Shown piece by piece: positions 30,701 through 33,700 of a DNA stretch of 64,000 nucleotides. A program made the position numbers and the translations under genes. The stretch is taken from the NCBI GenBank assembly GCA_041389525.1, contig JAWKRR010000013.1, forward strand, positions 68,976 to 132,975. Direction: 5' to 3'. Numbering within the stretch: the first letter of the stretch is position 1; every line of letters begins with the position of its first letter. Source of the DNA: Myxococcota bacterium (GTDB lineage Bacteria > Myxococcota_A > UBA9042 > PHBI01 > JACKFB01). The notes beneath the pieces are model-generated. The model did not search any database and had not been told where the DNA came from. It was given only the letters and a program-made list of their open reading frames with translations.

Positions 30701-33700
30701 GCGTCGACCACGGCGTTCTCGCCCTGCGAGAAGTCGTAATCCAGCGAGAACTGACCGCGGGCGAACATCTGCTCGCCGCGCGACACGGAGATGCAGATCT
30801 GACCGGTGATCTCTCGCAGTTCGCTCTGCTCGACGCGGACCGTGCCCTCGGTCCCCGGGTCGAGGTGGACCCCCCACTCGCCGGAGCTGCCGATGCGGAT
30901 CGCGTCGACCACACGAAGCGTCGCGGTGCCGCTGAACGCCTCGCCGCGCCGGTAGGTCGCGTTGCTGAGGTCCATCTCGGCCTTGCGGACCTCGCCTTCC
31001 TTGGCGACCAGCTGAAGATTCCCGGTCGCCTCGGTGAGCGTGCCCGCGGTGATGGTCGCCGCCGCGTTCGTGTTCTGGCCCAGATAAATCCCGAAACGGC
31101 CGGCGTCCTTCAAGAAGACGTCGGTCACCATCTGGAAGGTGGCGTTGCCCGTGAAGCCGCCCTCTTCGCCCGGCAGGTACTGACCGTTGATGCTGCCGTT
31201 GGCGACCTCGGTGGCGCCGTTCTTCAGCCGCAGCGGCACGTCGATGGTCGTCTTCTGGAAGCGGCTGTCCGCGATATCCACCGTGACCGACGCGTTCTGG
31301 CAGATGAAGAGCGCCCAGCCGGCCGGCTCGTCGCCGGTGTTCGTCGGATCCCCGACGTCGAGGTCGCGGGCCAGGACGAGGCTGCCCTGTCCGGTGACCT
31401 TGTCGGTCTCGGCGTTCCAGCTGCCCTCCACGCGTCCGGTGCCCAGCAGCGAGCCGCCGAGATCGAACTGAAAGTCCATCTCGATCTGGGCGTTCGACAA
31501 CGCGTTGTTGTCGATACGACCCGATACGTGCGAGCCCGCCATCACGCGCATGGCCGCAGCCGGGGGCAGGGCGCCGGCGTCCTCCGGCGAGCGCGGCCAC
31601 GACAGGTTGTTGATGAAGCGCACGTCGAGGTCGCCGCTGAACAGCATGCCCTCGACTTCGAGGTTGGCGTTCTCCAGCGAGCCCTGGAGGATCGGGGTCG
31701 TCCCGTCCTGAAGCTGCAGTTGAATCGAGCCGCCCATGCGGATCAGCCGCGACTCGAAGACCTCGACGTCGAGGGTGGTCACCTCGGGCATCAAGACGAT
31801 CTTCCACGGCGAGCTCTCGCCCAGCGGCTTCTCGACTGGCGCCTTCAGCGTCAGGTTGCCGTTGAACGCCAGCATCTGGTCGCTGGCCGTGTAGACGCCC
31901 TCGCTGATGCTGCCGGCGAGGAAGAGGGTGCCGCCCCGCAGATACTCGACGTCCATCGCCATCGTGATGCGGTCGAGATCGCTGGCGGTGACGACCACGC
32001 TGGCGTTCGCGCCGTCCTTCACGACGAGCGCGTCGCCGGTGGTGCCCAGCGGGAAGGTCGTGTCGCCCACGAGCCGCAGCGACGCGGTCCCGTCGATGGA
32101 TTCCTGCGGCTCCTTCAGGTAGGTGCCGTCGATCTGGCCTTGCAGCTGGATGGGCGCCGCGGCCGCGGGCACCAGCAGCGTGACCCCCAGCGGGACGTGC
32201 ACCTCGACAGACGCCAGCGCGCTCTCGGTGACCACGGCGCTGACCGTGCCCCCCTGCTGGATCTCGACGGAGCCCCAGTCACGCTGGATGGTCCAGCCGG
32301 TCTCGACCGAGGCGGTGGCCGTGCCGTTCACGACCGACTCGCCCTGCGCGGGCAAGCTCAGCGTGCCGTCGATGACGCCGCCGATGACGCCCAGCCCCTC
32401 CGGGCCCAGGCCGGTGATGCCGAACCCGACCTGCTCAAGCGTCAGCTCGGTCAGGCGGCTCTCGGCGAGCACCGCGATGATCGTCGACTCGCGACGAAGG
32501 AAGATCGGCCCCGCCTCGCGGCTCGGCATGCCGAAGTCGTTGGTCAGCGTGAAGGTGCCGCGCCCACCGATCTGCCCGGTCTCACCGGAGAAGTTCAGCT
32601 CCACGGTGCCGGTGCCGATCTCGTTCTCGCCCTCGGCGACGGTGAAGGTCAGGCCGCCGGTGGCCGCCGTGACGCGATTCGCCGCGACCGTGGCCGTGGC
32701 GGTCGCGCCGCGCGTGATGGTCGCGTGCACGCCAGCCGGGCTGCCCACCACGATGTCGCGCAGCGTCTCGACCTGGCCCTGCCCGGACACGAGGTTGCCC
32801 TCGGATTCCCAGACGATCTCGGAGCCCGTGACCAGGAACGTGGGCTCACCGGCCAGCGGGAACTCGGCCTCAAGGCCGCCTTGGACGCGCACCAGCCGGT
32901 TCTGCTCGACCGTGGCGGTCGCGTTGGCCTGCCGCAGGATCGCCCCGGTGTCGCCCAGCGGCAGCGGCTCGGTCAGCGTGACCTCGCCAGAACCGGCGAT
33001 CTCGCCCGCCGCGGCGTCGTAGCTGCCCCGCAAGTCCGCGCGCCAGTGAGGATCGTCAGGGTCGCCGCGGCGTCGACTCGCGTGAGCTCGCTGTTCTCGA
33101 CCGCGACCGTGAGGCTCGAGTTCGTGACCTCAAGCTCGCCCAGGCGAATGTCGCCCTGCTGGGTCAGGGTGCCGGCCAGGCCCCACAGGCCGTCGGTCAC
33201 GTTGTAGCGGCCGGTGATCCCGACGCCGACCCACTGCGCGATGCTCAGGTCGATGGTGCCGCCGACCTCCAGCCCCTCAGCGGTGTACTGGCCGGTGAGC
33301 TGCACCGCGTCCAATGTGACGTTGGGGACCAGTTCGAGCGGCTCGGCAAGGGTCACGGTGACCGCGCCCGAAAGCTGCCCATTGGTGAGGCCGGCCTCAA
33401 ACGTGACCCGCCCGACCTGGGCCACTTCGCCGGTCACCGTCCCGCGGATGGAGAAGTCGCCGCCCTCGGTGAGCGTGACATCGACCGACCCGCCGGTCAG
33501 CGAGACCGCCGGGTGCAGATGCACACCGGAGTGCGTGATGGTCCCGTGCCCGCTGATGCCGCCCGAGCTGAAGCTGAGGTCCAGCGTGCCGTCGAGCACC
33601 TCCCCGATCTGGAAGGCCGCCCCGCGCACGTCCCCGCGCACCTCGATGTGCGGCTCCGTCTGGCCGGGCAGCACCTCCTCGGCGAGGGTCAGGGTCACAC

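Follow-up and report, generated by a model that had tools for sequence, protein, structure and literature searches.

A 64,000-nucleotide stretch of DNA from a Myxococcota bacterium (contig JAWKRR010000013.1 of assembly GCA_041389525.1, positions 68,976 to 132,975; hereafter the window) contains two long minus-strand open reading frames (ORFs), the upstream one encoding a DUF4157 domain, which overlap in different frames. Are these two genes, as GenBank has them, or is this a single giant gene with a broken frame, and if so is the break programmed, a mutation of the organism or an error of the assembled sequence? A preliminary description of the locus had read the pair as one gene split by a frameshift. 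We find that ORF1 and ORF2 almost certainly form one gene of ~2,315 aa with its TTG start at 34727, broken by the unprogrammed loss of a single base from the codon for Pro560. The pair and the gene that they make up are:

32973..34727, minus strand: ORF1, 584 aa, TTG start; GenBank MEZ4266145.1, 'DUF4157 domain-containing protein'
27781..33033, minus strand: ORF2, 1,750 aa, TTG start; GenBank MEZ4266144.1, R3F39_07180, 'hypothetical protein'
27781..34727, minus strand: the whole gene, ~2,315 codons after one base is restored; the repaired translation has no stop codon

The two overlapping ORFs exist as first described, sharing 61 nt (32973–33033), with the ORF2 frame at −1 (=+2) relative to that of ORF1. 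In GenBank, as annotated by the Prokaryotic Genome Annotation Pipeline (PGAP), they stand as two coding sequences (CDSs), MEZ4266145.1 and MEZ4266144.1 (locus tags R3F39_071xx), with no pseudogene flag. The window has a G+C content of 71%, and the G+C content of third codon positions (GC3) is ~0.93 both in ORF1 and in ORF2. In 90-nt windows the high-GC3 phase switches from one frame to the other around 33100–33040, and both frames are therefore coding. ORF1 consists of 559 native residues followed by 25 out-of-frame residues (LTGARTCGAATTPRRARSPVLARSR) and a TGA stop, while the ORF2 frame is open from 33129 and its native coding begins at 33051 (P560).

The evidence that these are halves of one gene comes from the relatives. 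The frame was repaired with one inserted base and the 2,315-aa product was searched against a large protein collection. Four proteins (P0001 to P0004; 2,324, 2,320, 2,325 and 2,309 aa) were 90, 88, 84 and 79% identical to it at 100% query coverage, and a fifth (P0005; 3,217 aa) was 34% identical at 81% query coverage; no match in this search corresponded to the ORF1 half or the ORF2 half alone. P0001 to P0004 are encoded on nine orthologous contigs (L001 to L009) from other metagenomes or metagenome-assembled genomes (MAGs), each as one continuous protein of 2,309–2,325 aa, and the split was seen in none of the nine loci. As far as each contig reaches, the gene order is the same as in the window: upstream of the giant gene lie modABC, a 2-hydroxyacid dehydrogenase gene and a double AAA+ ATPase gene, and downstream two small hypothetical genes, a metallophosphoesterase gene and a ferredoxin-NADP reductase gene. 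P0001 to P0004 are therefore true orthologues. When 19 proteins of L001 were compared with the window by tblastn, 18 matched in a single frame and only the giant gene changed frame, its residues 2–584 lying in one frame down to position 33024 and residues 570–2324 in the other from 33051. Identity of the repaired window protein to its counterparts in L001, L002, L004 and L009 was 0.91, 0.89, 0.84 and 0.80, respectively, by codon alignment. The close family is rare: a scan of genome contigs of GTDB representatives found it in three species, all of them Myxococcota-type MAGs that had already appeared in the protein search. The central reading of the preliminary description is thus borne out by four full-length orthologous proteins with the same flanking genes. 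It had proposed looking for a continuous ORF in orthologues, which all nine loci possess; orthologues divided into two separate genes were looked for as well, and none was seen.

The position of the break can be given to within a codon. The preliminary description had placed the shift in a run of CG repeats (ccgcgcgcc on the plus strand). DNA alignment of the window with the nine orthologous loci does not bear this out and puts the lesion 6–15 nt further upstream in the gene, where the alignment has a single 1-nt gap: the orthologues read ATC CCG CAC TGG (I-P-H-W) and the window ATC C-T CAC TGG. Moreover, CTGGCGCGCGG at the repeat run is also present in the in-frame orthologues of L002 and L003. 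The features around the break are:

33049..33051, minus strand: the lesion, ATC|CT|CAC in the window and ATC CCG CAC in the orthologues, one base missing in the Pro560 codon
32973..33050, minus strand: out-of-frame tail of ORF1, 25 codons plus TGA (32975–32973), with no counterpart in the orthologues
33036..33044, no strand assigned: (CG)3-type run, ccgcgcgcc on the plus strand, the site proposed at first and not the site of the lesion

On the minus strand ATC occupies 33053–33051, CT 33050–33049 and CAC 33048–33046, so that C33051 both closes ATC, where native upstream coding ends, and opens CCT, where native downstream coding begins. Spelled on the minus strand, the deletion form of the site is ATCCTCAC and the intact form ATCCCNCAC (33046–33053). 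Across the junction the sequence of the orthologues is ...AAATLTIPHWRAV(L/V)TGSY.... Frame A of the window reads ...AAATLTI and then LTGAR..., and frame B reads ...DD and then PHWRADLRGSY...; in a protein alignment with the two window frames as separate rows, the frames abut exactly at TLTI|PHWRA. The junction residues named at first hold only in part, since native sequence in the upstream frame ends at I559 (...AAATLTI) and the ending ...ILTG does not stand, while the downstream frame is native from PHWRAD. Pro560 itself is invariant, even in P0005.

How old is the lesion? We aligned the repaired window gene by codons with the genes of L001, L002, L004 and L009, and calculated the ratio of nonsynonymous to synonymous substitution rates (dN/dS, Nei-Gojobori) for each in-group terminal branch against the codons common to the other two in-group sequences. 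On the window branch the ratio was 0.111 over the 364 codons before the break and 0.113 over the 1,211 codons after it; for the intact branches it was 0.070 (L001) and 0.153 (L002) overall. No second stop or indel was found in the downstream 1,756 codons (5.3 kb). With no relaxed constraint and no second lesion downstream, the lesion therefore either arose very recently or does not exist in the organism.

We put at about even the chance that the deletion is real in the sampled population, in which case a long repeat-rich accessory gene would carry a null allele that is very young or still segregating. We lean towards a real mutation for two reasons. First, when GC3 was scanned in six frames across the entire 64 kb, no other same-strand frame switch appeared beyond normal gene boundaries, and the other large genes of the window have complete domain architectures, so that the assembly is not generally indel-ridden. 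Second, the context is only CC(C), with no long homopolymer of the kind where consensus errors concentrate. Long repeat-rich accessory genes would offer large mutational targets. Translated literally, the gene would give 559 native residues and 25 junk residues before the stop, and the remaining 1,756 codons, which have no start signal of their own and include the most conserved, C-terminal part of the protein, would be left untranslated. A second candidate frameshift, at ~3700 on the minus strand, was considered and rejected as an ordinary gene boundary, at which a MerR-like gene is succeeded by another gene; what appears mechanically as a 600-aa ORF there (2503..4305, minus strand) is two genes by coding signal, the MerR-like regulator (3695..4384) and a 389-aa gene (2503..3672).

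Three observations weigh against a real deletion. The exact window proteins are found on one NCBI contig only, 140,127 bp long, and exact look-ups of the AAA ATPase and of ORF1 in a contig index gave no second copy. The change from CCG to C-T is not a clean deletion, and needs either a rare ancestral CCT followed by a deletion or a complex CG>T event; CCT is used for just 1 of the 96 other Pro codons in the giant gene (reconstructed codon excluded). Finally, a young lesion without relaxed selection is also what an artefact would look like. A scan of metagenome contigs with a degenerate junction pattern (1–3 nt in the Pro codon) gave 0 matches, in a collection from which the known orthologues of the Joint Genome Institute (JGI) are absent, and a search of metagenome contigs for related loci gave 0 relatives.

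The rival that survives best is accordingly an error of consensus or assembly, in which the gene of the organism is intact, the MAG contig carries an uncorrected indel, and the two GenBank proteins are annotation artefacts. We regard this as a serious possibility, its chances a little short of even. It is favoured by the lack of evolutionary age of the lesion, with equal dN/dS on its two sides and an undisturbed frame over the following 5.3 kb, and by the intactness of all four orthologous proteins on the nine contigs. It is also favoured by the form of the change, a complex CG>T replacement in a C-run adjoining GATC. Complex CG>T-type changes beside GATC are a pattern common in long-read consensus errors, and one indel per 64 kb would not be unusual for metagenome assembly. 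Yet no other frame break was found in ~55 genes or in the 64 kb, the run is only 2–3 nt long, and if the assembly was a short-read de Bruijn assembly the k-mers with the deletion must have occurred in several reads.

Whether in the organism or in the contig, the break is an ordinary, unprogrammed single-base lesion in one gene that has been mis-annotated as two proteins. It is much like other frameshift-split CDS pairs in draft genomes and MAGs, where two same-strand ORFs overlap by tens of nt and are colinear with one protein in relatives, and where the downstream 'start' is merely the first start-like codon. The change from CCG to C-T differs from these in not being a clean homopolymer contraction; otherwise the case differs in nothing essential.

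There is a slim chance that a real deletion is kept in the population as an on/off polymorphism of an orphan effector gene of the type associated with extracellular contractile injection systems (eCIS), or that the 559-aa fragment is functional in trans. In the latter case the DUF4157 fragment could, for example, act as adaptor to the AAA+ ATPase encoded next to it, the C-terminal module being dispensable.

Slighter still is the likelihood of an old pseudogene in decay. In favour of it, the reading frame is interrupted and three quarters of the protein would be missing from the product. However, only one lesion is present, the 1,756 codons after it are open with a GC3 of 0.93 and a dN/dS of 0.11, and the C-terminal module is up to 94% identical to that of the orthologues.

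Equally improbable is programmed −1 ribosomal frameshifting, or on/off switching of the gene at a phase-variable (contingency) site, the latter an option which the preliminary description had also raised. The geometry would allow it, since a −1 slip re-reading C33051 would restore the full protein, and phase variation occurs in some large repeat-rich genes for surface or effector proteins. A −1 shift would be permitted between the last frame-B stop (33132–33130) and the ORF1 stop (32975–32973), that is, within 33129–32975. No slippery heptamer of the form X_XXY_YYZ occurs in this interval, and its runs are limited to one GGGG (33029) and one (GC)3 (33043), neither at the site and none >4 nt. 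The site itself lies in the context ACG ATC CTC ACT, with CC in the window and CCC in most orthologues, and has no simple-sequence tract. All relatives are in frame ('on'), the closest of them being only 91% identical, so the frameshift is not conserved, and the (CG)3 run is unchanged in in-frame orthologues. Given no heptamer, no tract at the site and no shift in the relatives, programmed frameshifting and phase variation mediated by simple sequence repeats (SSRs) are therefore rejected. The likeness to dnaX, to transposases of the IS3 family and to SSR-mediated phase variation is one of geometry only, an upstream ORF followed by an overlapping downstream ORF in the −1 frame; those systems differ from the present gene in the heptamer or repeat tract that it lacks and in that its shift is not conserved.

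The question of one gene or two also turns on where translation starts. The start of the giant gene is:

34725..34740, minus strand: true translation start, with TTG at 34727–34725, GGAGG at 34740–34736 and an 8-nt spacer

TTG and GGAGG are both kept in L001, L002 and L004, and the start codon is GTG in L009; being conserved, the non-ATG start at 34727 is therefore real. In other records the gene callers extend the giant gene to an upstream GTG, so that P0001 has the N-terminus VAEGGG... and P0003 VVAEGAG.... As for ORF2, neither a purine-rich element nor a ribosome-binding site was found upstream of TTG 33033, and the interval 32700–35100 contained no promoter-like or terminator-like sites. 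TTG 33033 is a mechanical start, the first start-like codon in an open frame, and not a biological one, because the native homology of its frame begins six codons upstream. That both ORFs start with TTG, as had been remarked, is thus literally true, though the two differ in kind, TTG 34727 being a conserved start behind GGAGG and TTG 33033 lacking a ribosome-binding site. Two genuinely separate genes, the least probable reading of all, have in their favour that PGAP called two CDSs, and against them that the split is absent in relatives, that TTG 33033 has no ribosome-binding or promoter-like site before it and lies inside the native homology of its frame, that the terminal 25 residues of ORF1 have no homologue, and that the break falls within a continuous beta region and not at a domain boundary.

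In the repaired protein an N-terminal coiled and charged region is followed by the DUF4157 domain (now eCIS_core), a degenerate beta-repeat region of ~1,450 aa and a conserved C-terminal module. The match of ORF1 to PF13699 (eCIS_core, formerly DUF4157; PVC-metallopeptidase) at aa 134–207 scores 55.4 bits against a gathering threshold of 22, and the precomputed Pfam matches of all orthologues are likewise to PF13699. Within this domain lies an HExxH zinc-binding motif, LLGHEMAHVAQQ (H196-E197-x-x-H200 in the window; H202/E203/H206 in P0001 numbering), whose H, E and H do not vary among the five aligned sequences. Comparison of the profile with itself detects the degenerate repeats at aa ~345–1790, at an offset of ~64 aa (lowest E-value 4.8e-25). 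A BLASTP self-comparison of the protein had no matches, and the repeats show up only at the profile level. The break at 559/560 lies inside this region. The internal repeat that the preliminary description had seen at the break is present, though its sequence signal is weak. Residues 346–905 of an orthologue were modelled with AlphaFold (mean predicted local distance difference test score, pLDDT, 77; predicted template modelling score, pTM, 0.60); the model is one continuous all-beta region, in which the break is predicted to fall at the end of a beta strand (strands 212–224 and 227–236; local pLDDT ~84–87). In a Foldseek search with the repeat-region model, the only matches were to large antiparallel beta proteins such as LptD and VDAC, at template modelling (TM) scores <0.2, which we read as generic similarity of beta-meanders and not as homology.

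The C-terminal 521 aa are the best-conserved part of the protein, being 94% identical to L001 and 56% identical to P0005. In their model (pLDDT 66), long beta hairpins occupy ~250 aa and are accompanied by a disordered linker, a long hydrophobic helix and a small helical domain for which pLDDT is ~87. This module matched no Pfam or NCBIfam family, and gave nothing significant in a PDB profile search and nothing in Foldseek at E<1e-3. A profile built from it (window 27784–29346, minus strand) matched 238 cluster representatives at the 50%-identity level, 104 of them at E<=1e-30, and nearly all matches lie at the C-terminus of proteins of 1,700–5,241 aa. A DUF4157 N-terminus was also matched in 45 of the 81 long members of this family. 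Taken with the C-terminal position of the module, this makes a single polypeptide the norm of the family. In giant proteins such as P0116, P0132, P0133 and P0140 the last helical domain of the module, ~90 aa, is present in 7–12 tandem copies.

Toxins associated with eCIS have been described as carrying DUF4157 at the N-terminus, a linker that is sometimes >1,000 aa long, and a C-terminal domain (Geller et al. 2021, PMC8213781; for related work on DUF4157 and eCIS-associated toxins see Danov et al. 2024, PMC11297309). The repaired gene and its orthologues share with them a DUF4157 domain with HExxH, a linker of >1,000 aa, a distinct C-terminal domain and an adjoining AAA+ ATPase gene; owing to the frameshift, the window sequence as it stands lacks this architecture. 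They differ from them in two respects. There are no sheath, tube, baseplate or spike genes in the 64-kb window or in the 27-kb orthologous loci, as judged by the absence of the corresponding Pfam domains from the tested genes of both; an eCIS locus could lie elsewhere in the genome. Furthermore, the C-terminal module has no convincing match to a Pfam or NCBIfam family or to a fold in the PDB. By analogy, the pairing of the ATPase with the giant gene resembles that of an eCIS ATPase with its cargo, here with no eCIS structural genes nearby. Judged by its sequence, the gene product is a member of the DUF4157 family and not a demonstrated eCIS effector.

The frameshift is biologically ordinary, and the main value of recognising it lies in annotation. 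MEZ4266145.1 and MEZ4266144.1 should be merged, or flagged as frameshifted or pseudo, and any family built from the 1,750-aa 'hypothetical protein' or the 584-aa 'DUF4157 protein' will inherit a false architecture together with 25 junk residues. The gene is also a clean example of the architecture in which DUF4157 is joined through a very long linker to a C-terminal module, found here in a conserved chromosomal neighbourhood beside a CDC48-like ATPase, with no eCIS structural genes nearby, in a small lineage of Myxococcota of the activated-sludge type.

The nearest neighbours of the giant gene are:

35045..37255, minus strand: CDC48/VCP-like double AAA+ ATPase with an N-terminal winged-helix domain (Pfam and NCBIfam; PDB sequence matches to VCP-like ATPases, E=1.7e-37)
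27026..27784, minus strand: hypothetical protein, 252 aa, a conserved downstream neighbour by synteny
25943..26785, minus strand: hypothetical protein, 280 aa, a conserved downstream neighbour by synteny
24698..25933, minus strand: metallophosphoesterase, a conserved downstream neighbour by synteny

All orthologous loci have the CDC48/VCP-like ATPase gene immediately upstream of the giant gene. One of these loci (L005, from JGI) encodes a giant protein identical to that of L004 and lacks the greater part of the two accessory genes downstream (248 aa and 286 aa). Where L004 has 16978–19059, L005 has 16978–17443: two segments are deleted and a 193-nt piece is kept, flanked by the inverted repeat CCTGTAGGGGATA...TATCCCCTACAGG. 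The difference is a strain-level deletion, and the retained 193-nt piece may be a small mobile or repeat element.

Elsewhere in the window, a 503-aa ORF at 38764–40275 on the plus strand, antisense to modC and modB, has no Pfam match and an atypical G+C content by codon position of 0.84/0.60/0.85, and resembles a high-GC shadow ORF more than a gene. At 5839–14008 on the plus strand lie a 2,022-aa bacterial alpha-2-macroglobulin (MG2, bait region, A2M and bMG10) and, after it, a CarboxypepD_reg/PDZ protein. The mechanically assigned ATG of the latter (11792) overlaps the alpha-2-macroglobulin gene by 115 nt, and its true start is therefore probably further downstream.

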